A stretch of DNA of 64,000 bases from a candidate division TM6 bacterium SOIL31 (GTDB taxonomy: Bacteria; Babelota; Babeliae; Babelales; Vermiphilaceae), in assembly GCA_001468865.1 (NCBI GenBank), contig LDIY01000042.1, positions 22,066 through 86,065 on the forward strand. Direction: 5' to 3'. Shown here piece after piece: positions 1 through 64,000 of this stretch (its first letter is position 1; the number at the start of each line of letters is the position of its first letter). Under the pieces are notes generated by a model. The model did no database searches and had not been told where the DNA came from. It was given only the letters and a program-made list of their open reading frames with translations. Both the position numbers and the translations under genes were made by a program.

Positions 1-1427
1 CCGTCATTATCACCGATGAAAGCTTTGAAGAAGCACTATTCGATTGGTCACGCACCTTCGCTCAAGCAATGGATATCGCGCATAAAAAACATTATGCCAT
101 TACTGATCCCAAAGAAAATATGATTAAAGCAATTGATGGCTTTATCAATTCCCTCGATGCCCATTCCAATTTCTTAGATCCAAAAACATATCATGAAATG
201 CTGGAAATGACCTCTGGTGAATTTTTCGGTGTCGGCATTGTCATTGATAATATGAGAAAAAATAAAGATAAACATCTTACAATAGTCGATACCATTCCCG
301 ATGGCCCTGCTGATAAAGTGGGCATTCAACCGATGGATAAAATAGTAGAAGTTGATGGCCAACTCCTTGAGGGCCTTACCACTGAAAAAATAATCTCTCT
401 ACTCAAAGGTGAACGGCATACCACGGTTAAAGTAAAAGTTATGCGGGAAAATAGCCCTGATTTACTCTCTTTTGATATTGTACGCGATGTGGTTAAAGAA
501 CAACACTCACTCAGTTTTCATATCAAAAGTCACAACATTTCTTATATTTCACTCAGCATGTTCACCGATGCAGCAGTCAAACAAATTGAAGCTTTGCTCA
601 AAAAATCCCAGGAGCAAAATCATAAAGGATTAATTCTTGATTTGCGTAATAATTCAGGAGGATTGCTGAGTGCAGCAATTGATATCGCCGGGCTTTTTGT
701 CAGAAAAGGAAGTCTCGTTACGCTTACTAAAGACAAAAATGCACAAGAAATTGAAAGATACACTACCAAAAGAGATCCTGTCATCAAAAATACACTGCCT
801 ATCTTTATTTTGATCAATAATTATACTGCGTCTGCCGGAGAAATTCTTGCCGGCTGCCTGCAGATCAATTCTGATACAACGAATGATTACCAAGTATTTT
901 TAGTGGGCACCAAAACATTCGGCAAAGGATCAGTACAAGAAGTTATTCCGATAAGCAATAATTGCGCACTCAAAATAACCACGTGTCTTTATTTTTTACC
1001 TGATGATACCACCATTCAAGGAAGCGGTATTGAACCGGATTTTGTGATTGAACGCACCACACCACCATCCGAACAGGTGCAATGGTTTACCAAAAATTAT
1101 GGCCGAGAAGAAACGCTTGATAATTATATAAAAGTTACTAAAGATGGCAGACCTTTGCCAAAAGAAAAACCTACAAAGTCCGAGAAAGATAAAAAAAATA
1201 ACAAACATGATTCAGACAAAAAAGAAGGAAATCGTCGCCAAGATCGTGCCAAGGAAATGCTTCAAAATGATAATCAACTGCGTGATTGTATTTCTTTGAT
1301 TAGCACGTTGCACACAGCACAAACTTACACTCCTGATTTAGTAAAAACGCGCGCGGATGCGTTGGCATATCTTAAACAGAATCATATCAGTACCGATAAA
1401 CTCGAAATTGAGGAGGTTAAGATATAA
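1..1427 (+). CDS. ctp: C-terminal processing (tail-specific) peptidase, S41 family; 5' end outside window
   Basis: Frame is open from nt 3 to the listed ATG at 69, with no stop. PDZ-like GPADKVGIQPMDKIVEVDG. S41 motifs LILDLRNNSGG and TFGKGSVQE. Confidence 0.9.
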   Translation, partial: VIITDESFEEALFDWSRTFAQAMDIAHKKHYAITDPKENMIKAIDGFINSLDAHSNFLDPKTYHEMLEMTSGEFFGVGIVIDNMRKNKDKHLTIVDTIPDGPADKVGIQPMDKIVEVDGQLLEGLTTEKIISLLKGERHTTVKVKVMRENSPDLLSFDIVRDVVKEQHSLSFHIKSHNISYISLSMFTDAAVKQIEALLKKSQEQNHKGLILDLRNNSGGLLSAAIDIAGLFVRKGSLVTLTKDKNAQEIERYTTKRDPVIKNTLPIFILINNYTASAGEILAGCLQINSDTTNDYQVFLVGTKTFGKGSVQEVIPISNNCALKITTCLYFLPDDTTIQGSGIEPDFVIERTTPPSEQVQWFTKNYGREETLDNYIKVTKDGRPLPKEKPTKSEKDKKNNKHDSDKKEGNRRQDRAKEMLQNDNQLRDCISLISTLHTAQTYTPDLVKTRADALAYLKQNHISTDKLEIEEVKI

Positions 1428-1428
1428 C

Positions 1429-2187
1429 ATGGAAAGCATTATAAAATACACACTTCTTGCGCTATTTTTTTTCTCAAAAATTTCGGCAGATATCATAGAA
1501 AGTGATAAACTTGAAACAGTTCTTAATTATCTCGATACACCAAATACGCTCGTTATTTTTGATATTGATAATACACTAGCCCGCACCATAACAGAACTTG
1601 GCAGTGATGAATGGTTTTGTGATTTAGTGGATAAAAAGATGGCCGAAGGCCATGATTATATTACCTCTATTTACTATGCATTGCCTGCCACTTTTTATGC
1701 ACAATTTAATATTGGCTTACGGCCTACCGAAGAAGTAGCTGCAGAGCTGATAGCAAATTTAATTGATCAAAAAATCCCCGTAATGGCTCTGACCACCCGA
1801 AGCATTTTTGTAACAGAAAGAACGATGGAGCAGTTGGAAAATATCGGTATTTCATTTCTTATTCCAAGCATAAGCCAAGAAGACTTAGTTCTGCAGATGC
1901 CACATCCCTGTTTTTATCGACAAAGCATTTTATTTGGCGGCAACAATGATAAAGGAGAAGCACTGATTACGTTTTTCCATTGGATGAATTATTTTCCCAC
2001 AAGAGTCGTATTCATTGATGATAAGATGAAATATCTTTTGGCTGTTGAGAAAGCGTTAAAACACTATAATATAGAATTTGTTGGCATTCGGTACGCAGGA
2101 TGCGATGAATGCGTAAAAAATTTCGATGCTACCAAAGCTGAAGAACAGTGGAATAGGTTGCGACATAAAAAGGAACAGTACTCATGA
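1429..2187 (+). CDS. Secreted HAD-superfamily hydrolase-like protein
   Basis: ATG 1429 preceded by AGGAGG (1411-1416). Hydrophobic N-terminus. HAD motif I LVIFDIDNTLAR and late motif VVFIDDK. Confidence 0.7.
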   Translation: MESIIKYTLLALFFFSKISADIIESDKLETVLNYLDTPNTLVIFDIDNTLARTITELGSDEWFCDLVDKKMAEGHDYITSIYYALPATFYAQFNIGLRPTEEVAAELIANLIDQKIPVMALTTRSIFVTERTMEQLENIGISFLIPSISQEDLVLQMPHPCFYRQSILFGGNNDKGEALITFFHWMNYFPTRVVFIDDKMKYLLAVEKALKHYNIEFVGIRYAGCDECVKNFDATKAEEQWNRLRHKKEQYS

Positions 2188-20510: not shown

Positions 20511-21638
20511 TTAAATCCCTATCCCACGTTTCTTTAAACTTTTCCTCGAAATAGATTGGGTATGGTTCCGTTCCATGCCCATTTTTTGTAAGAAATGGTA
20601 AAAAAATTCTCGATCAGGCCCTTTCACCACCGCCTGCTCATGAGCTTCTGCCAACACCACCGGATACCCGCCACCTTTGATACATTGATCAATCACTATT
20701 TGGGCAATCAGATCAACCGCAGACGCATCTTGTGCTATCCATGCCGGAATTTCTACTCTTCCAATCTCATTACCCGTATGCAGATAAAAGAAAAACGGCC
20801 TCAGGTGCGCCGGATAATAAACACTAATAGTACTATGATTACTAAAGACAATAGAACGCGTACATGGTGCCAACACGCTATTCATAATCCCACTATCAAT
20901 AACATTATCTACCGATTCATAAAGCTCTTTTTTATCAACATCAAAATTGCATAAATATAATCGCACCAAACTCATCAGCTCTTTACTCTTAGGCATACTG
21001 ATATACCAGCATATAGGTATTTTTTCATGATAAAGTTCATCTAATAGGGTAAGATAGGCGTTCAAAAATTGATCTCTGAGATGCGTTTCTTTGGATGAAA
21101 GGTGCCAAAATATAAGCGATCCATCAAAAAGCAATAATTGTGCTACGGCGCTATATTCATTTCGTATCTTTTTTCCCAATTCAAGACCCGCGCGCAATTC
21201 AAGTTCTTGTCGCTTACAATTGACCCCATCGGTAGTAAATGGCTGCTGATTTTCATCAAGTCCTGCAAAAACCGTTGGATCTGAAAAAAGCTCTACGCGT
21301 TTATTTTCTATGCCATATGGCAGCACAACAGAACCAGTATTAATCAAGCAACACGAAAGAACATTGTGACGATCGGGATAAATCTGAGACCCATCAACAG
21401 AAAGAGCTACATACGCAAACGCAACTTTTTCGATCGAAAGGGTTGCATCAAGATCATCTTGCCATAATGGGACAGGCCAGGGAGCGTTATGAACTTGGCG
21501 TACTTTATATAAAAAGGTGGAATCGGCGATAATGGACTGCCAAACATCCCGGGCAAGATGATATGAAGGGCTAGGATCAGCAAATAGTTGTCCGGCGACT
21601 TTTTGAAGTTCGATAAGTAGTTTGAGTCGATCGAGCAT
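20511..21638 (-). CDS. NurA-like nuclease domain protein
   Basis: LSVDGSQIYPDRH, LLFDGSLIFW, IGRVEIPAWI and GGGYPVVLAEAHEQAVV resemble bacterial NurA signatures. Confidence 0.55.
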   Translation of the reverse strand: MLDRLKLLIELQKVAGQLFADPSPSYHLARDVWQSIIADSTFLYKVRQVHNAPWPVPLWQDDLDATLSIEKVAFAYVALSVDGSQIYPDRHNVLSCCLINTGSVVLPYGIENKRVELFSDPTVFAGLDENQQPFTTDGVNCKRQELELRAGLELGKKIRNEYSAVAQLLLFDGSLIFWHLSSKETHLRDQFLNAYLTLLDELYHEKIPICWYISMPKSKELMSLVRLYLCNFDVDKKELYESVDNVIDSGIMNSVLAPCTRSIVFSNHSTISVYYPAHLRPFFFYLHTGNEIGRVEIPAWIAQDASAVDLIAQIVIDQCIKGGGYPVVLAEAHEQAVVKGPDREFFYHFLQKMGMERNHTQSISRKSLKKRGIGI

Positions 21639-56355: not shown

Positions 56356-57283
56356 GTTTTTTTCGTTTCATTTGTTTTGTGTTTTTTTGTTGAAGTATCT
56401 TTTTTTCAAGAGTTTCAATGCGCTTGGCGTTCATTTTATTATAAATATAACCTTCAATTTCCGTGAACGTTATCAACATCGTTTTATATCTGATAAAATG
56501 CACCGCCTCTTCAAGAGGGGTTATTAATCGAGCACCAGCATTTTTTCTGCATGTTTTCATCTGGGCTCTTTCAGTAAGTTCTTTAATATCAAACCAACGA
56601 GCAATATCTTCTGCTTTCTTTTGATCGTTATCGAAATATATATCTACTAAATATTTTGCTATTGTTAAGTATTCATGCCGTAAATCACTTATCGCATCCT
56701 GTACCTTATCTGCATTACGCGCAGAAAGATCAGGAGAGATACCTGTAGCATACAACGATGAAAAACCTATCGTCATGCTTCCAAACCAAGAAACTGCCGC
56801 CGGCGTTAAAATGGTTGATGCTGAAGACAAACAATCATGTAATGTTCCATTAACACATTGCAAAAAACTCACCGCCGAAACAAAAGGAAATCCCGAGGCT
56901 GCAGTAATAATTACACCATTAATCCAAAAACACCGTCCCACCCACTGCTTTATTCCTTCTGCACGATCAAATTTCTTTTGTTGCACACAGGTAAAGAGTG
57001 TTTTTGATTTGTTACCTTCTTTGCTTATGGTGGATAAATAGAGTAAATGCTCCAATGAAGAAGCATTCGAATGTAAGCAAGATTGTGCTTTAAGTGATTC
57101 TCTTAATTTTTGCAAACCTGCAATATCAGGAATATTTTTAATTTCTTCACTATATCTATTGCACCACAGACTTTGCCGCGGTGGTATATTCACCAAAATG
57201 TCGTTACGTTCTATGGGTTGCATAGCATAAAAAGAATGCATGCACACTACCATGATGAGTAAAAAAGATCTCACATACCGCAT
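56342..57283 (-). CDS. Hypothetical membrane protein (leader-Met family)
   Basis: Leader ...CMHSFYAM. Central hydrophobic region. 14-nt overlap with metG. Confidence 0.6.
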   Translation of the reverse strand: MRYVRSFLLIMVVCMHSFYAMQPIERNDILVNIPPRQSLWCNRYSEEIKNIPDIAGLQKLRESLKAQSCLHSNASSLEHLLYLSTISKEGNKSKTLFTCVQQKKFDRAEGIKQWVGRCFWINGVIITAASGFPFVSAVSFLQCVNGTLHDCLSSASTILTPAAVSWFGSMTIGFSSLYATGISPDLSARNADKVQDAISDLRHEYLTIAKYLVDIYFDNDQKKAEDIARWFDIKELTERAQMKTCRKNAGARLITPLEEAVHFIRYKTMLITFTEIEGYIYNKMNAKRIETLEKKILQQKNTKQMKRKKHGKK

Positions 57284-57286
57284 CTT

Positions 57287-58255
57287 TTACAAACCCTTTT
57301 CCTCAAAAACAATTGGTTTCTTTTCATGAAAAAGGTAAAGGCCAAAAACTACGCATATCATAGTAGCAAAGAAATGCCAGGTTACTTGTTCGTTCAAAAA
57401 AATCCGCCCAAGCAATGCTGCAAATAACGGCGTCATAAAACCTGCAAATGAAAGAAATGTTGCTGAATAGCGTGAAAGCAAATAACCATATAAATTATAA
57501 CCAATGATATTTGCAATAAGCACCAGCGCAAAGCTATAGACCCCTAACATGATAAATTGTTCTCCCATTAGCCCAAACCTATCAACCAGTTGCGGCAGAA
57601 CTACCGGTACATTTTTCACTATTGGCAATCCCTCTTTCACCAGAGAGAGAAGCAATGCCAAGATACCGCCCCCCGTCATACCTATTCCATTGATAAGCAC
57701 TAATGAATAATTTTTATCCATTAATTTTTTTACCATCATCCATCCATATGCGCTTGATACAACTGATGCAATAAGCGCAATTTCATAACATGATAAAAAT
57801 CCAAAATGCCAACCAATTTTTTCCAGTGGCGTTTGCGCGATTAGGATAGGAATAAATCCTAAAAATCCAATGATAAGACCACATATTTGTTTGCTCGTTA
57901 AACGTTCGTTGCGCAAAAAATAACATAAAAGTGCCGTAACAAATGGCGATAAATTATAGAGCAAACAAGCTTTAGCAGAAGTTACATATTCCAGAGCCCA
58001 AAATTCCAACGTATAGGCACAGAAAATATGAAATAAAATAATACGAGCAAATAATAAATAGTCAGCAAATTTAATCGTAGTGCGTTCTTTTCCCCGTAAG
58101 GTGTAATAGGCCAAAAGCATGCTGCCGCCAAGCATCATACGTATACCGATAAATAAAAATGGTGAAACGTATGAAAGTGCGGCTTTGCCGAGCGTAAAAG
58201 TACTGGCAAAAAGGAGGTATAAAAGGATGACAAGGACCATATATTCGCTCCACAA
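57287..58255 (-). CDS. EamA/DMT-superfamily transporter
   Basis: About 10 TM segments arranged as two EamA-like halves. Confidence 0.75.
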   Translation of the reverse strand: MWSEYMVLVILLYLLFASTFTLGKAALSYVSPFLFIGIRMMLGGSMLLAYYTLRGKERTTIKFADYLLFARIILFHIFCAYTLEFWALEYVTSAKACLLYNLSPFVTALLCYFLRNERLTSKQICGLIIGFLGFIPILIAQTPLEKIGWHFGFLSCYEIALIASVVSSAYGWMMVKKLMDKNYSLVLINGIGMTGGGILALLLSLVKEGLPIVKNVPVVLPQLVDRFGLMGEQFIMLGVYSFALVLIANIIGYNLYGYLLSRYSATFLSFAGFMTPLFAALLGRIFLNEQVTWHFFATMICVVFGLYLFHEKKPIVFEEKGL

Positions 58256-58344
58256 AATGGGAATTTAACTCGTAATTTACCTTTTATTATACCATTTTCC
58301 AGCCTTTTAACGAGCCCTATGATCTTACGTTTCTTTTTTACTAC

Positions 58345-58388
58345 GAAAGAAGCGAGACGCAGCCGTTGAGCCACATCTCGCCTCTTTC
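58345..58388 (-). terminator. Strong 3' stem-loop after the Cys-rich protein gene (no canonical T-tract)
   Basis: 13-bp stem GAAAGAAGCGAGA / TCTCGCCTCTTTC with one mismatch. Confidence 0.4.
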
Positions 58389-58404
58389 TATATATTGTAT
58401 GATT

Positions 58405-59244
58405 TTATTGAAGACAACACACGCATGAATGTATTCGATATACTAACTCAGTGATAGTCTTAAGCCAGGTCAGAATATCCGCATCACTACCATTAATAAT
58501 AGCATCAGCAACCGTAATTGGTGCACAGAGTGGAATATCAAGGAAAGATGCTTCCGCCGGATCACCAAGAGTAGTTTCTATAACTGAACAACATTCAGCT
58601 GATGTATCAATTACTGATTCAATCAACTCTTCAACATCATGTATTTTATGTCCCAGTTTTTTGCAACATTTTTTTGAATCTTTTTCCAGTTGAATTATGC
58701 GCTGATTAAGGATAGAAATGTAGGTGCGAAGACATGGATCTGTACAACATTTCTTACAAGGTTCTATATCTCCACAAGGATTACATGGATCAGCAAGTTC
58801 TTCACGTGGTGCGCGTGATGCATCAGCAGGAACTTCATCAAGCTCTGATTCTTTTGCTACTGCACGTGCTGCGGCAGCCACTGCTGCCATTCCATCACGG
58901 CATGTTTTTTGACAACCGCATTTTTCCAAATCTCCAACAACTCCGTCACGGCATGTTCTTTGACAACCGCAACATCTTTCCAGCACAAGTTCTCCGGAGA
59001 GTTCATCGCGTGTTGTTCTTGCACATCCACATTTCCCTGCATCTAATGTTGATTGACGGGAAAAGCTTCCCCCTGCTGCCAATGCTGCCATTTGAACATC
59101 TTTGATTGATTGCGCAAGCGCATCTCGCATTGATTTAGCTAATTGGCATGGGGAACATTTTGCAGCATCTGCTTGCGCTGCCAAAGGAAAAATCATTGCA
59201 CCCATCACCACCAGTGAAAAGGCTGATCTTATTATTGATTTCAT
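58405..59244 (-). CDS. Exported cysteine-rich protein
   Basis: Signal peptide ...PLAAQA/DA. About 30 Cys, including three tandem 17-aa CGCxxTxRD repeats, CNPCGDIEPCKKCCTDPC and the terminal SCVCCLQ. Confidence 0.8.
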   Translation of the reverse strand: MKSIIRSAFSLVVMGAMIFPLAAQADAAKCSPCQLAKSMRDALAQSIKDVQMAALAAGGSFSRQSTLDAGKCGCARTTRDELSGELVLERCCGCQRTCRDGVVGDLEKCGCQKTCRDGMAAVAAAARAVAKESELDEVPADASRAPREELADPCNPCGDIEPCKKCCTDPCLRTYISILNQRIIQLEKDSKKCCKKLGHKIHDVEELIESVIDTSAECCSVIETTLGDPAEASFLDIPLCAPITVADAIINGSDADILTWLKTITELVYRIHSCVCCLQ

Positions 59245-59274
59245 CTTCTTTACCTTTCTTAAAAAGTATCTTCT

Positions 59275-61164
59275 TTAGAAGTATATTACTAAGCCAAGAT
59301 GACCTTCAGATTCTTTCATCGCATGTCTACCAGAAACGATTTGTGTTCCACCACCAAAGATTTCAAAGTAGCCAGAACGATAGAAGATTTGACCACGCAA
59401 CTTATTGGTAAGCGAACGTGTATTATGCTCAAGAATTTCTACATCGAGCGGTTGATTTGGTCTACCAAATAAATCTGTTGCAGTTGGATTACCGTCATTG
59501 CACGGAACGCATGAACCAAGAGAAACATGATCATTACCCTTAGCAAACAATTCATAGCCAAGTTGGAATCCAAGATCAGGATTATGTGGATGGAAGAAAC
59601 TGAAATCAGTACGCAAGACAAAGTAATTCCATGCAACGCTTACATCAATTTCCGGTCCAATATTGACAACGGTCTGACCCGCAAATGGCGCTGCACGTTT
59701 TTCATTGCGTTTACATGCATGGTAAAAGTATGGACGAATTTCAAACGCAAACCACGGACATGGTTTCCAACCACCATCTAAACCAAGATTAATCACCACG
59801 TGACCATTGTTACCCGTTGGTTGATAGTAAATACGCTTAGCATTTTCTGCTCTTTTTGCAGTAGGGAATTGAACACCAAAAATACCATCAACAAACCAAT
59901 TATCGGCATCACCGATACCGCCATATAGTTGAGCGTTTAAATCGCCAATGCCTACAATGCGTTCATATGCGAGCAAATTAATACCATTATTTAAAAAGAA
60001 AGTTGATGCAGGTTCTGCTATTGCAAGATCCGCATCAATAATTGCTGTTATGTTAGTTAAAATATCTTGCGCATTCTGCGTGAGTTCATTGCCATTAGCA
60101 TCAGTAGCACGCGGAACCAAGAATAAGGTTGCTTGTGCACATCTATCTTTTGCTAAAACACCTGCGTAATCAACACCCATATTCATGTAATAAGTTTCGC
60201 CCTCAATACCTTCACCATCTGCTCCCAGTACCCCATTTACTTGACTTGCTTGTCTTCTGAAAGGAAGATTTGGTACCGTGCCATCATTACTTTTAGTGAA
60301 ATAACCAGCAAGGTTATTCATTGCCGGGCTCGTACCAGAAACTAACTGACCTGAAACATCCACCGATCCTGGAGGAGCATCAGCATAGTCTACTACCGCA
60401 ACAGGTGTTGGTATTTCTGATGGAGTGGTTACTGAATTAAAAACTAATGTACTTAAAAAATCAAATCGCATCGCGAATTCAACTTGATTAGGTTGTGGTC
60501 CTTCATCAGCGTTTACAATTCTGGTTACAAAAACATCATCCAATGTTTCTTCAAGTGCAGTGCTGGTATCTTGTTCAATTTCAATAATTTTATAGGGAAT
60601 ATATACACGACCACCCACATGGTATTTCTCATCACATCCCAGATTACTACGAGCAAAATCAACACCAATATGCGCGCCAGTTTCATTATAATCAAAAACT
60701 GGTCTGATACGTGCAAATGCTAAAAATGGGTTAATACTATTAACTAATTCTTGGTTGAGAGAAGCTGGTCCTGCAAAGGTGCCGTTATTAAACACATTTT
60801 CACCACGGAACACTGTTTGACCAAAGAACAATTCTGAAAGTGGTGCTGTATGCCGAGTTACTTTATCAGATCTATGTCTTGTGCATCCTTCAGTAACAGG
60901 ACCGCATGAATCAGCACATTTATCAAAAAATGCTCTACTTGCGGTACGCGTATACGCAGCGCCCCAGAAATGAATGTTCCAATCGGTGTTGGTTTTTTGG
61001 CTTGGCATTTGTTCATACCACCATGCTTGGTCGGCTGGGGCAAGTAACCAATGCATATAACCACGATCTTCTAAGCTGAGCGGCGATCTAAATTGAAAAG
61101 TCGCATGAAGTGCCCCACCACATAATGTGCCGAGCAGCACAATACTTTTTAAGGATTTCTTCAT
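59275..61164 (-). CDS. Outer-membrane beta-barrel protein (porin-like), Cys-containing
   Basis: ATG 61164 after AAGGAA. Signal peptide ...GGALHA/TF. Alternating-hydrophobic strands. Beta-signal-like C-terminus GHLGLVIYF. Confidence 0.75.
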   Translation of the reverse strand: MKKSLKSIVLLGTLCGGALHATFQFRSPLSLEDRGYMHWLLAPADQAWWYEQMPSQKTNTDWNIHFWGAAYTRTASRAFFDKCADSCGPVTEGCTRHRSDKVTRHTAPLSELFFGQTVFRGENVFNNGTFAGPASLNQELVNSINPFLAFARIRPVFDYNETGAHIGVDFARSNLGCDEKYHVGGRVYIPYKIIEIEQDTSTALEETLDDVFVTRIVNADEGPQPNQVEFAMRFDFLSTLVFNSVTTPSEIPTPVAVVDYADAPPGSVDVSGQLVSGTSPAMNNLAGYFTKSNDGTVPNLPFRRQASQVNGVLGADGEGIEGETYYMNMGVDYAGVLAKDRCAQATLFLVPRATDANGNELTQNAQDILTNITAIIDADLAIAEPASTFFLNNGINLLAYERIVGIGDLNAQLYGGIGDADNWFVDGIFGVQFPTAKRAENAKRIYYQPTGNNGHVVINLGLDGGWKPCPWFAFEIRPYFYHACKRNEKRAAPFAGQTVVNIGPEIDVSVAWNYFVLRTDFSFFHPHNPDLGFQLGYELFAKGNDHVSLGSCVPCNDGNPTATDLFGRPNQPLDVEILEHNTRSLTNKLRGQIFYRSGYFEIFGGGTQIVSGRHAMKESEGHLGLVIYF

Positions 61165-61224
61165 CAGTTTCCTTTTTTTTATTACGTCCATACTAACTAC
61201 CTTTTTTATTGCTGGTGTGAGATG

Positions 61225-61256
61225 AAGGGATGAGTGCAATTGCACCCATCCCTCTC
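61225..61256 (-). other. Intercistronic stem-loop between the large envelope-protein gene and the OMP gene
   Basis: AGGGATGAGTGCAATTGCACCCATCCCT (imperfect palindrome); no T-tract. Confidence 0.5.
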
Positions 61257-61259
61257 TTA

Positions 61260-64000
61260 TTAGTCTTCTATATTTGATGCTGTTACTATTTCATTGACAG
61301 TTGTATCAATATTCACAAACACAGCTGCAGTATCGATTGCATCTCTACGTTTACTATCTTCTGTACCAGGACCAAAGAGATCATATAAGGAACCGCGAAC
61401 AATGTTACCTTGAATGATGGTATCAAGAAGAGCTCCGTTATACTCTGGTCTAAAGCTATCGCCCGCACTTGCAGCATTTGCTCTACCGAACGTATTTTGA
61501 CGTTCAAATTCTAACACTGCATCATGAGTTTTGAGATAATTATAGAATTGTGCACCCGTTAATCCTGCTTGATCAACATTATCTGTTTGCAATAGTGTTG
61601 ATGCCATAATTCCTGCTGTTAAACGATTAGAAAGAACACCATCTTGATCGAGAACGATTGGATGAATACCACCAGTTCCTGGCTCAACGAGTACAAAGTT
61701 ACCACCACCAGCAAGATTAAATTGCGTTGTTCTTTCCAAAGTAGGATCAACATTTTCATCTTGTACTGCAAAATTGATATTAAATGAACTTCCTCCACTG
61801 TTACTCACCGCAACTAAGGATGCTTTGGTATCATCACCGGAGAAAATACGATCGTGTTCAAAGCGACCACTCATAAAGTTGAAAGTAATTGAATTAAGAT
61901 TGCTAAGATTATTAACAATATTTTCATTTGGAATTGGCATGAATGGACATACTCGTGCGCGTAGTACTGATGCTTCAGCATCAAATCGTTCAATACCCAC
62001 ACCAAGTCCCAAGAATCCTTGGCTACCAATTGAGAAGTTAGCATCGTCACCATCAAGCGTTAAAGTAAAGCTAACGCTATGACCAGCAGTCTCATCAACG
62101 TTTCCAATTTGAAGCACACCACCTTCATTGAAGTTGAAGTGCCCAATTGCAAACGCACCATTATCCGCAATGTTTAATTTAATATCTGTTGTTGGAATAA
62201 CGCATGTTGGTGTGTTGAGCGTTTCAATACCTACAAACGCATTGTATGGCAATGACGCTTGTGCATTATCAACGATTTCAATGGTGCCTCGACCAACAAT
62301 TTTAACACGGAACTGATCGGTGTTATGCAGATTCGCTCCAAAATTAGTTAAGTAGGAAAGAGGATTATGAATATCAGCTGCAGGAACTCCCACAATTGGA
62401 AGTGTTGAATCATGTGCACCATGAGGAATTGCAGCGAAGAAATCTTGCGCATTTACTGCTGGTTCAAATAAGAGTTTTGAATCGCCAGAGAAACGCAATG
62501 TTCCTAAACCAGTAATGAGCTGAGAACCTGGCTCGAACACTAATTTCAACTCTCCTGCAATTGCAACAATATCTGTTACATCAGTAAATGATGCCAAGTT
62601 CAGTGTACCTGTTGATTTCACCAAAATTTGGCGCTCTACGGCACTGTATAGTTCTAACACATCACAAGAAGCAAAGTTAGGTCCTTTGACAATTGCGCAC
62701 ATGTTATTAATCTCTAAATCGCTATTGACAACCACCTGACCAGAACCATCTGCAATAATGATAACACCATTCACACCAAGTGCTGTTTGATTATCAAGAC
62801 CGATGCGGCCATTATTGCGGAGAACTACTGTTGCCACAGGCGCTTCTGCGCTACATTGCGTTGGTATGAAGGTTAAGCTACGAACAAAACCACCATCAAT
62901 TAAGAACTGTGCAGGATCACCGATACGCGTTCCTTGTAACTGTAAATCATCAACTTCACCTTGAATAGTTGGTAATGATGTTACGTTTGCTTCAGTTACT
63001 ACAGGACAGGTACACGAACTAGTGCAACAACTGAATGGTAAGAAGTTCGGACAGTCTTTTTTAGCAAGCAACCAATTCAATATATAAGTAGATAATTGTT
63101 GATCTGGTCCGATAATAACTTGATCTTCAAGATCACTTAAATCGATATCCCACGTTGCAATACCTGCACCATCACAGAAGAATACTTGGCTTGCAGGAAG
63201 ATCAACGATCCCGTTATGACTCTTAATAACCATCACGCATATATTTGCGATAAATCCAGGTTCGATACTAAATTTACCATTCAAATCAACAAATATGGCA
63301 TTTTTACCCGTGATCATACTTCTGGTTGGAGGAGTAGTACGCCCTTCAAATGAGAACACATTACCTGCAATACGCAACCATGGATTTGTATCGATGTTAA
63401 AGCCTGTTGTATCAGCATTCACACCAATGGAAATATTACTATTACCACCCAAGAATATGGTGTGAATTGAAGTTGTATCATCTACAATATTGTTATTGAT
63501 GGTGTCATCATTAGATGCCGTTTTAAGATCTAATGTTTGATTACCATTTGGATCAAGTGGATTAAGTGCTGATATTATTGCTTCATCCTGTTCCATAATA
63601 TCAAGATGAGCATCTGCGCTGATGCGAGAACAACCATCGGCTGCAGTTGAACCAATACGCGTACCAAGAATCATCTGACGACCGGTACCATTATCAACAC
63701 ATGAACCATTTGAGAAGAAAATAAACTGAGAAAGATTTGCGCGAAGCACGCCGAGAGAATCAACATAATTTGGCACGACTAAATCTAATCCAGTCAGTGC
63801 TATATCAGTATGCACTTGAAGCTGAGCGTTAATGAAACGTATATTTGGTCTTACATCTGAAGATAATAAATTGAATGTATCACCACCGATATACGCTGGT
63901 TCAGATCTTAAATCGCTGTTTGGGCACACCGTATGACATTCATCAGTGTGATTTAACACGGTATCCATTAAATTCATTCTGTTGTTGATCAAGAACGCAC
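61260..64000 (-). CDS. Very large Cys-containing repetitive protein, possibly beta-helix-like (surface/envelope candidate); 5' end may lie outside the window
   Basis: >900-aa ORF, still open at the window edge (first in-window ATG is 63977). Gly/Asn/Asp/Thr-rich repetitive segments that may be beta-strand-rich. CCTSSCTC cluster. Confidence 0.75.
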   Translation of the reverse strand, partial: AFLINNRMNLMDTVLNHTDECHTVCPNSDLRSEPAYIGGDTFNLLSSDVRPNIRFINAQLQVHTDIALTGLDLVVPNYVDSLGVLRANLSQFIFFSNGSCVDNGTGRQMILGTRIGSTAADGCSRISADAHLDIMEQDEAIISALNPLDPNGNQTLDLKTASNDDTINNNIVDDTTSIHTIFLGGNSNISIGVNADTTGFNIDTNPWLRIAGNVFSFEGRTTPPTRSMITGKNAIFVDLNGKFSIEPGFIANICVMVIKSHNGIVDLPASQVFFCDGAGIATWDIDLSDLEDQVIIGPDQQLSTYILNWLLAKKDCPNFLPFSCCTSSCTCPVVTEANVTSLPTIQGEVDDLQLQGTRIGDPAQFLIDGGFVRSLTFIPTQCSAEAPVATVVLRNNGRIGLDNQTALGVNGVIIIADGSGQVVVNSDLEINNMCAIVKGPNFASCDVLELYSAVERQILVKSTGTLNLASFTDVTDIVAIAGELKLVFEPGSQLITGLGTLRFSGDSKLLFEPAVNAQDFFAAIPHGAHDSTLPIVGVPAADIHNPLSYLTNFGANLHNTDQFRVKIVGRGTIEIVDNAQASLPYNAFVGIETLNTPTCVIPTTDIKLNIADNGAFAIGHFNFNEGGVLQIGNVDETAGHSVSFTLTLDGDDANFSIGSQGFLGLGVGIERFDAEASVLRARVCPFMPIPNENIVNNLSNLNSITFNFMSGRFEHDRIFSGDDTKASLVAVSNSGGSSFNINFAVQDENVDPTLERTTQFNLAGGGNFVLVEPGTGGIHPIVLDQDGVLSNRLTAGIMASTLLQTDNVDQAGLTGAQFYNYLKTHDAVLEFERQNTFGRANAASAGDSFRPEYNGALLDTIIQGNIVRGSLYDLFGPGTEDSKRRDAIDTAAVFVNIDTTVNEIVTASNIED

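Follow-up and report, generated by a model that had tools for sequence, protein, structure and literature searches.

In a 64,000-nucleotide (nt) stretch of the genome of the candidate division TM6 (Dependentiae) bacterium SOIL31 (contig LDIY01000042.1, positions 22,066 to 86,065; hereafter, the window), three consecutive genes encode a giant beta-rich protein, an outer membrane beta-barrel, and a small Cys-rich protein. The operon is single copy, strongly conserved, and directed to the envelope, and none of its protein families has an annotation. Its conserved core is the pair formed by the giant and barrel genes, which are adjacent in all 46 informative loci (17 genomic and 29 metagenomic). 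This giant-cargo/barrel pair, hitherto undescribed, appears to be widespread among Dependentiae, and its Cys-rich partner is confined to one clade. Our preferred reading, held tentatively and with slightly less than even confidence, is that of a Dependentiae (Babeliales) envelope operon in which the barrel would transport the giant to the cell surface or anchor it there. An earlier note on this DNA, made from the sequence alone, had assigned the three genes to a host-associated lineage, which the Dependentiae are, and had compared their products to the disulfide-cross-linked chlamydial outer membrane complex (COMC), consisting of the major outer membrane protein (MOMP), OmcA/OmcB, and beta-helical Pmp proteins. 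That comparison is weighed below against the one that we prefer.

Conservation of the giant-barrel gene pair

In the open reading frame (ORF) list of the window, the three genes follow one another head to tail, all on the minus strand, as the earlier note had stated, and all peptide strings quoted there are present in the translations. The barrel and small genes are separated by 30 nt, also as claimed. The gap between the giant and barrel genes comes to the previously reported 95 nt if the barrel starts at ATG 61164 (629 amino acids [aa]) and to 68 nt if it starts at ATG 61191 (638 aa). The latter start is the likeliest, since it was called in the source metagenome and is preceded by the conserved element AAAAAAGGTAG. 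This element, an A-run followed by GGT(A/G)G, is found closely upstream of the barrel start codon (window positions 61192-61205) and of the giant start codon (L001, 5565-5582). It is invariant in 8 related loci and probably represents a ribosome-binding context. The giant ORF, correctly described as still open at the window edge, was completed with upstream sequence from the source contig, a 211-kb contig of a soil metagenome to which the window is identical. The full-length protein has 1449 aa and begins with a signal peptide (MKRCFSRYRLALFAISLASSSVWA) that looks cleavable. Export signals are present in all three products, and an outer membrane beta-barrel is predicted for the middle one.

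In tblastn searches, the barrel gene came immediately after the giant gene in 17 of 17 genomic loci. A 5-sequence alignment of the giant's C-terminal module, used to scan metagenomes, retrieved 31 loci, and in each of the 29 that were not cut off, the module-bearing gene adjoined a barrel-family gene on the same strand. All homologues carrying organism names were assigned to "Candidatus Babeliales" or "Dependentiae"; the related genome loci likewise came mostly from Dependentiae/Babeliales, and two had been labeled "uncultured Pseudomonadota" by their submitters. Giant homologues (n = 60) were mostly ∼1440-1470 aa long, with 41 of the 60 at 63-91% identity. For the barrel family, an exhaustive profile search of a representative library yielded 437 clusters (50% identity), of which 320 had E values below 1e-30, and full-length members among the best 150 of the 437 clusters had ∼560-730 aa. 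Distant barrel homologues that were sampled contained no Pfam domain and bore no name other than "hypothetical protein."

In closer relatives, the next ORF after the barrel gene encodes a secreted Cys-rich protein. A comparison across related genomes, suggested in the earlier note, therefore bore out the synteny of the trio in relatives. The conserved unit, however, is the pair, which also occurs in Cys-poor form and which, in most distant loci, lacks the third gene. At locus L018, for example, the flanking genes are unrelated, but a barrel homologue (24% identity) again comes after a 1707-aa giant homologue (E value, 3e-30), and both are Cys-poor. Variations around the core were observed as well. 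Locus L040 (10094-14365) has one giant gene followed by two tandem barrel-family genes. At six loci (L023, L029, L030, L032, L035, and L036), the gene after the barrel encodes a different large secreted protein, 556-1184 aa long as seen, several of these being cut by contig ends. These proteins are low in Cys, with no Pfam domain and no giant module detected, and may be another partner or cargo.

At two loci (L020, 7576-12084; L022, 3915-8361), a barrel paralogue is found without a giant gene upstream, and two other genes flank it, in the order 136- to 139-aa protein, barrel paralogue, and secreted PF00756 esterase fusion. The first of these products is secreted and matches positions ∼925-1030 of the giant profile. 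The esterase protein, also secreted and 758-781 aa long, carries the PF00756 domain at its N terminus (E value, 4e-24), and its C-terminal half matches giant-profile positions ∼1072-1425, with a blastp E value of 9e-23 to the giant of the window. Motifs conserved in the shared region are GGxLQVGN, GFLGLGVGI, GxFxHxRIFxGDD, and GGGN. At these two loci, the C-terminal 500 aa of the giant are in effect distributed over genes on either side of the barrel gene. Two different N-terminal passengers are thus found on one C-terminal module, each beside a barrel of the same family, which argues for a cargo-plus-dedicated-barrel system. Judged from its sequences, the esterase/barrel pairing looks like a cargo/barrel system and not like a MOMP-type lattice.

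The stem-loop previously noticed in the larger intergenic gap proved to be real. It is a GC-rich, 13-bp hairpin with a folding free energy of -24.7 kcal/mol (z score, -4.9), and 0 of 200 shuffled sequences folded as well. Hairpins of differing sequence occupy this position in 13 of 17 related loci, and in an 8-sequence alignment, 7 of 12 pairs are kept through changes on both sides. Another hairpin, located downstream of the small gene (-32.6 kcal/mol; z score, -6.7), probably ends the transcription unit. Since neither hairpin has a U-tract, both were missed by a scan for consensus terminators; terminators or RNA stability elements in this genome may generally be without U-runs. An Rfam search of positions 57000-64000 returned no match.

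These observations bear on the possibility that the genes form no functional unit, the barrel being an ordinary channel or porin that is unrelated to the giant and its neighbor only through small-symbiont synteny. The neighborhood potABCD-trio-MetRS is indeed syntenic across Babeliales, so that adjacency of giant and barrel genes among close relatives proves little by itself, and nutrient channels are known among 12-stranded barrels, for instance in the COG4313 family, which gave the best template modeling (TM) score to the barrel model described below. However, adjacency persists despite a complete change of flanking genes (L018, L020, and L022), a covarying hairpin is conserved between the two genes, and the barrel paralogue, too, has as its neighbor a protein bearing the giant's C-terminal module. 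Because of the adjacency and the shared module, we regard a chance neighborhood as very unlikely.

Predicted folds and known secretion systems

As previously read from its sequence, the barrel protein has a signal peptide and ends in GHLGLVIYF. Its AlphaFold2 model (predicted local distance difference test [pLDDT], 83.9; predicted TM score [pTM], 0.79) contains 12 long strands, with turns of 2-6 residues on the presumed periplasmic side and long loops at residues 85-165 (L1), 208-417 (L2, a 210-aa domain), and 552-592 (L5). The surface loops, of which L1 and L2 are large, amount to ∼290 aa. The best Foldseek match was FapF (E value, 2e-8; TM score to target, 0.62-0.65; sequence identity, 8-9%). 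The model also matched the autotransporter beta-domains of EspP and EstA (E values, ∼4e-6), which, as FapF does, form 12-stranded barrels that transport polypeptides, and the highest TM score to target (0.76) was that of a COG4313 channel. The sequence had no Pfam match at an E value of ≤1 and no NCBIfam match, and a profile search of the PDB with the family alignment gave nothing meaningful.

The mature giant (153 kDa; pI, 4.4) has a composition dominated by none of the usual hydrophobic residues but enriched in G, N, D, and T. An AlphaFold2 model of the 910 aa encoded within the window (pLDDT, 86.1; pTM, 0.82) is all-beta with many short strands, and these C-terminal 910 aa are confidently modeled as a beta-solenoid. 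The repetitive character formerly ascribed to the giant thus holds for the predicted structure, but not for the gene, in which no DNA tandem repeats were found. Neither the full 1449 aa nor the part within the window matched any Pfam-A family at an E value of ≤1 or any NCBIfam family, a PDB profile search with the family alignment returned no meaningful match, and Foldseek against PDB and BFVD (viral structures) found nothing significant (TM score, ≤0.19). Weak Foldseek neighbors in PDB (E values, ≥0.027) were the S-layer protein RsaA, Ag43, IgA1 protease, pertactin, and tailspikes, all of them extracellular beta-helices. Foldseek, recommended in the earlier note, therefore placed the barrel among 12-stranded barrels but left the giant without a significant structural neighbor.

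By analogy, the core would be closest in function to a split autotransporter or to a type 11-like pair. Type Va autotransporters (EspP, EstA, Ag43, and the chlamydial Pmps) likewise join a large, Sec-exported, beta-helical passenger to a 12-stranded barrel. Their domain order is mirrored by the gene order passenger-barrel, and the barrel model can be superposed on the beta-domains of EspP and EstA, a likeness at the level of fold only. Unlike in type Va systems, passenger and barrel are here two polypeptides encoded 68-95 nt apart, each with its own signal peptide, and the barrel carries ∼290 aa of outer loops and has no PF03797 match. Type 11 secretion systems (T11SS; Slam/DUF560) also encode a dedicated barrel beside a Sec-dependent cargo, which is a functional analogy and does not imply membership. 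Slam barrels have 14 strands, whereas the present barrel has 12 and shows no DUF560 or TPR match at an E value of ≤1. T11SS cargo proteins share a common conserved C-terminal domain and differ in their N-terminal functional part (PMC8406197; bioRxiv 10.1101/2024.09.26.615229), similar to the giant beta-solenoid or esterase on one C-terminal module found here, with adjacency in 46/46 informative loci. In contrast to the small 8-stranded barrel of T11SS cargo, the module is a beta-solenoid of ∼350-500 aa, and it occurs in another phylum.

FapF, the best structural match to the barrel, is likewise 12-stranded; it is a transporter of polypeptides whose gene shares an operon with those of its substrates. 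Unlike in the Fap system, no other fap genes are present here, and the substrate would be a folded 153-kDa solenoid instead of a small amyloid subunit. In two-partner secretion (TpsA/TpsB), as in the pair described here, a giant beta-helical exoprotein and a dedicated barrel are encoded side by side. TpsB, however, belongs to the Omp85 proteins and has 16 strands and POTRA domains, and TpsA has an N-terminal TPS domain, whereas the barrel studied here is 12-stranded and the shared module lies at the C terminus. When barrel and giant were scanned with Pfam and NCBIfam, no matches to Omp85, POTRA, or haemagglutination/TPS domains appeared. The pairing at L020 and L022 follows a logic that is also known from type V and type 11 secretion, in which a cargo has a dedicated barrel.

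A large, beta-rich protein encoded beside an outer membrane barrel could also recall a TamB/AsmA-like conduit, in which the giant would bridge the periplasm and deliver phospholipids to an outer membrane free of lipopolysaccharide (LPS), with the barrel as a TamA-like partner. Babeliales indeed lack LPS genes (PMC4776705). Nevertheless, the giant has no AsmA, TamB, or DUF490 match, its signal peptide looks cleavable and is no signal anchor, the barrel is 12-stranded without POTRA or an Omp85 match, and no TamB-like structure was among the Foldseek matches of the giant. With AsmA/DUF490 domains, signal anchor, and Omp85 partner all lacking, this candidate was rejected as highly improbable.

What the data show is the anatomy of the genes, their export signals and predicted folds, the invariable adjacency, the module shared with an alternative cargo, and the covariation of the hairpin. 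The physical interaction of giant and barrel, the direction of transport, the surface location, and disulfide cross-linking are inferred. In the cargo/barrel reading, the giant would leave the cytoplasm by Sec, and the barrel would, most likely, recognize its C-terminal region (∼aa 925-1449) and then either translocate it over the outer membrane or anchor it there. The outcome would be a surface coat or an adhesin. The intercistronic hairpin would probably set the expression ratio in favor of the giant over the barrel, either by stabilizing the upstream message or by partly terminating transcription. It is conceivable, but rather doubtful, that the pair represents a new Dependentiae-wide secretion or anchoring system, a "split autotransporter" that, together with a CC/CxC-stapled helical-repeat protein, would build the envelope or coat of a phylum with neither LPS nor any of the four known outer membrane tethers. 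Such a system, comprising a 12-stranded barrel with large surface domains and a cargo with a C-terminal beta-solenoid module of ∼350-500 aa, would be equally doubtful in these particulars.

Several findings weigh against the surface location proposed here. Barrel and giant match no type V, type 11, or Fap family model in Pfam or NCBIfam, and structural likeness among small barrels is generic. In the barrel, conservation peaks at 0.93 in the periplasmic turn FHPHNPDLG (534-539) and is lowest in the outer loops (0.57-0.59), a combination that would fit a periplasmic partner. Moreover, conservation of the giant among close relatives roughly equals that of MetRS, which is unusual for an exposed adhesin, and its C-terminal module is no better conserved than other parts. 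The conserved turn would suit a periplasmic scaffold or tether, in which the giant solenoid docks on the periplasmic face of the barrel and links the outer membrane to peptidoglycan or the inner membrane, replacing Lpp, Pal, OmpA, and OmpM. A giant of near-constant length that is highly and evenly conserved along the protein would also be in line with this role, as would the outcome of a phylum-wide survey, in which no homologue of the four known outer membrane tethers was found in Dependentiae (bioRxiv 10.1101/2021.05.31.446380). Yet, Pfam scans detected no peptidoglycan-binding or membrane-anchor domain, and a tether leaves ∼290 aa of outer loops of the barrel without a role. The esterase cargo on the same module suggests delivery, and the giant's weak fold neighbors are all extracellular. 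We consider such a tether quite unlikely.

The Cys-rich third protein and the chlamydial analogy

Only the small protein of the trio is truly Cys-rich. It contains 25 Cys in 279 aa (9.0%), somewhat fewer than the ∼30 given in the earlier note, and in an alignment of 25 homologues, Cys occupies 26 columns in half or more of the sequences. The protein belongs to a clade-restricted helical-repeat family that had no Pfam or NCBIfam match and gave nothing meaningful in a PDB profile search with the family alignment. It is marked by KCSPCQ, a variable number of CGCxRTxRDE units, an invariant (R/K)APR motif, KKCCKK, a variable number of CCS-containing helical units, and a C-terminal DADxxTWLKxI...CxCC helix. 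Even in very divergent members, the (R/K)APR motif, often APRPDAP or APREEL, stands between the N-terminal and CC-repeat parts; it may be a processing or docking site. Divergent members of the same layout occur at L008, L011-L013, L017, L026, and L043. Where BLAST fails, distant third genes can still be recognized by a signal peptide, (R/K)APR, helical repeats punctuated by CC/CxC, and a C-terminal ...IQWLKT... helix. Altogether, the third gene is present in at least 18 of ∼46 loci, all within the clade that has giants of ∼1400-1500 aa. At L010 (12146-17803), no small Cys-rich gene comes after the barrel; the gene next to MetRS, on its far side, encodes a secreted protein of 1885 aa that contains 57 Cys.

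The Baculo_PEP_C family (PF04513) represents the C-terminal domain of the protein of the baculovirus polyhedron envelope. No match to it at an E value of ≤0.01 was found in 25 third-protein homologues, including the protein of the window. A divergent homologue of 496 aa (L026, 7488-8978), with 7.7% Cys and many LCSCVS-type repeats, alone exceeds the cutoff of this family (40.4 versus 38 bits; E value, 3.7e-10).

The barrel had been thought to contain unusually many Cys. However, its 10 Cys, one of them within the signal peptide, amount to 1.5%, compared to a background of 1.53% in the other ORFs of the window. In the family alignment, the median is 8 (1.28%; range, 0-23), counts per orthologue range from 0 (L008) to 32 (L015), and a single Cys column is near-invariant. 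The barrel is therefore not Cys-enriched, and its Cys are not conserved. For the giant, the family median is 1.87%, with 4-57 Cys per orthologue. Conservation of Cys among orthologues, on which the earlier note had made its idea depend, thus applies to the small protein, but not to the barrel and largely not to the giant.

These data bear on the proposal that the three proteins form a COMC-like lattice, i.e., a disulfide-cross-linked, redox-switchable envelope shell. The barrel would act as MOMP, and the Cys-rich protein, perhaps with the giant, would act as an OmcA/OmcB-like periplasmic scaffold that replaces tethers. OmcA/OmcB themselves have been modeled as a periplasmic scaffold beneath MOMP (PMC13254160), and by analogy this scaffold would be the closest functional counterpart of the third protein. 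In favor of a lattice, Cys make up 9% of the third protein at conserved positions, the numbers of Cys in the mature barrel (9) and in the mature small protein (25) are odd, the periplasmic turn of the barrel is very conserved, and one divergent third-gene homologue (L026) lies above the Baculo_PEP_C threshold. The lineage would also suit such a shell, as Dependentiae have neither known outer membrane tethers (10.1101/2021.05.31.446380) nor LPS genes (PMC4776705). Chromulinavorax forms free extracellular particles with dense periplasmic material (PMC6561590). Like Chlamydiae, Dependentiae are intracellular parasites with an extracellular stage, both possess a secreted Cys-rich protein, an outer membrane barrel, and a large beta-helical protein, and the idea of a disulfide-stapled layer in place of conventional wall tethering applies to both (PMC13254160, PMC6752827).

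On the other side, barrel Cys are neither enriched nor conserved (0 in L008; median, 8), whereas those of MOMP are conserved (PMC13254160). The giant-barrel pair is known in Cys-poor form and, in most distant loci, without the third gene, and a lattice leaves the esterase-cargo variant unexplained. The third protein, being alpha-helical with CC/CxC repeats, also differs from OmcB, for which immunoglobulin-like domains are predicted (PMC13254160). There is no homology to any chlamydial component, in agreement with the earlier note: hmmscan against Pfam-A returned no match to MOMP (PF01308), OmcA, OmcB, or Pmp (PF02415) for any of the three proteins at an E value of ≤1. Pmp motifs are not enriched in the giant either, with 0 GGA[ILV] and 10 FxxN compared to 6.9 ± 2.5 in shuffled sequences; a relationship to Pmp proteins, with unenriched motifs and no family match, was rejected. 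The chlamydial analogy put forward before is hence supported by the Cys-rich exported third protein and the barrel model, but not by the unconserved Cys of barrel and giant, the Cys-poor pairs, and the esterase cargo. We regard a COMC-like lattice as unlikely; jointly, the lattice and the tether, the two periplasmic readings, amount to a serious possibility that still falls short of probable.

The cargo/barrel reading can accommodate the third protein in a more restricted role. In the clade of the window, this co-transcribed protein with alpha-helical repeats and CC/CxC motifs could form a disulfide-stapled layer, which would reinforce the envelope of the extracellular stage. Such a layer is possible. 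In a scan of ORFs that covers the window only, and not the remaining genome, no Dsb or thioredoxin-like gene was found.

Genomic surroundings and significance for Dependentiae

The positions of the features discussed above are compiled in Table 1. The cluster had also been suspected to be more GC-rich than its surroundings. Its GC content of 0.40 falls inside the range of the remaining window (0.32-0.41), and a GC-rich island is thus ruled out.

Table 1. Features of the giant-barrel locus (window coordinates)
Feature	Position	Strand	Remarks
Gene for Cys-rich secreted helical-repeat protein	58405-59244	-	279 aa, 25 Cys; from ORF and homologue alignment
Middle ORF, barrel gene	59275-61245 (gene 59275-61191 from likely ATG)	-	638 aa, signal peptide
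Giant gene, 3' two-thirds	61260-64000	-	aa 538-1449 and stop codon; 5' end beyond the window
Putative barrel-partner module of giant, core (aa 1081-1340)	61590-62369	-	Homology to C-terminal half of esterase proteins
Region shared by giant and esterase proteins, ∼aa 925 to C terminus	61263-62837	-	Same homology, wider extent
Intercistronic RNA stem-loop	61225-61254	-	Directly 3' of giant stop codon
20-bp stem-loop downstream of stop codon of small gene	58345-58388	-	Folding energy

Other genes of the window are ordinary housekeeping genes of a small genome, encoding GlmS, GyrB, TilS, DnaJ, Suf, signal peptidase I, TopA, and MetRS. A PilB/GspE-type ATPase (34623-36348, minus strand) appears as two overlapping ORFs (MshEN, 35794-36348; T2SSE, 34623-35846), which could reflect a frameshift or an error in sequencing, or else a gene that is truly split. 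Genes for a FUN14-family protein (36359-36814, minus strand), a NurA-domain nuclease (20511-21638, minus strand), and a DUF2608 protein (1357-2187, plus strand) are also present. To our knowledge, these three domains are unusual in bacteria; FUN14 is a mitochondrial outer membrane family. A Bat-like operon (TPR, BatD, TPR, VWA, VWA/DUF58) is located at 41416-46900 on the minus strand, ∼12 kb from the trio, and VWA genes are also close to the barrel pair at L021.

A literature search on Cys-rich envelope or autotransporter proteins in Dependentiae found no description of these genes. In Babela, peptidoglycan genes are wholly absent, and the same study describes an apparently different family of seven secreted proteins that combine a Cys-rich N terminus with a beta-barrel (PMC4378268).

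Dependentiae are a widespread phylum of protist parasites whose envelope has been called "degenerate," and how they hold their outer membrane together and display proteins to the host is the question that this operon addresses. It offers a concrete candidate, a 153-kDa protein with a confidently predicted fold and no structural neighbor. If the cargo/barrel reading is true, protein export by dedicated barrels would gain a new barrel family and be extended to a further phylum. If the third protein forms a disulfide-linked layer, the chlamydial way of living without a conventional wall would have arisen a second time, independently.

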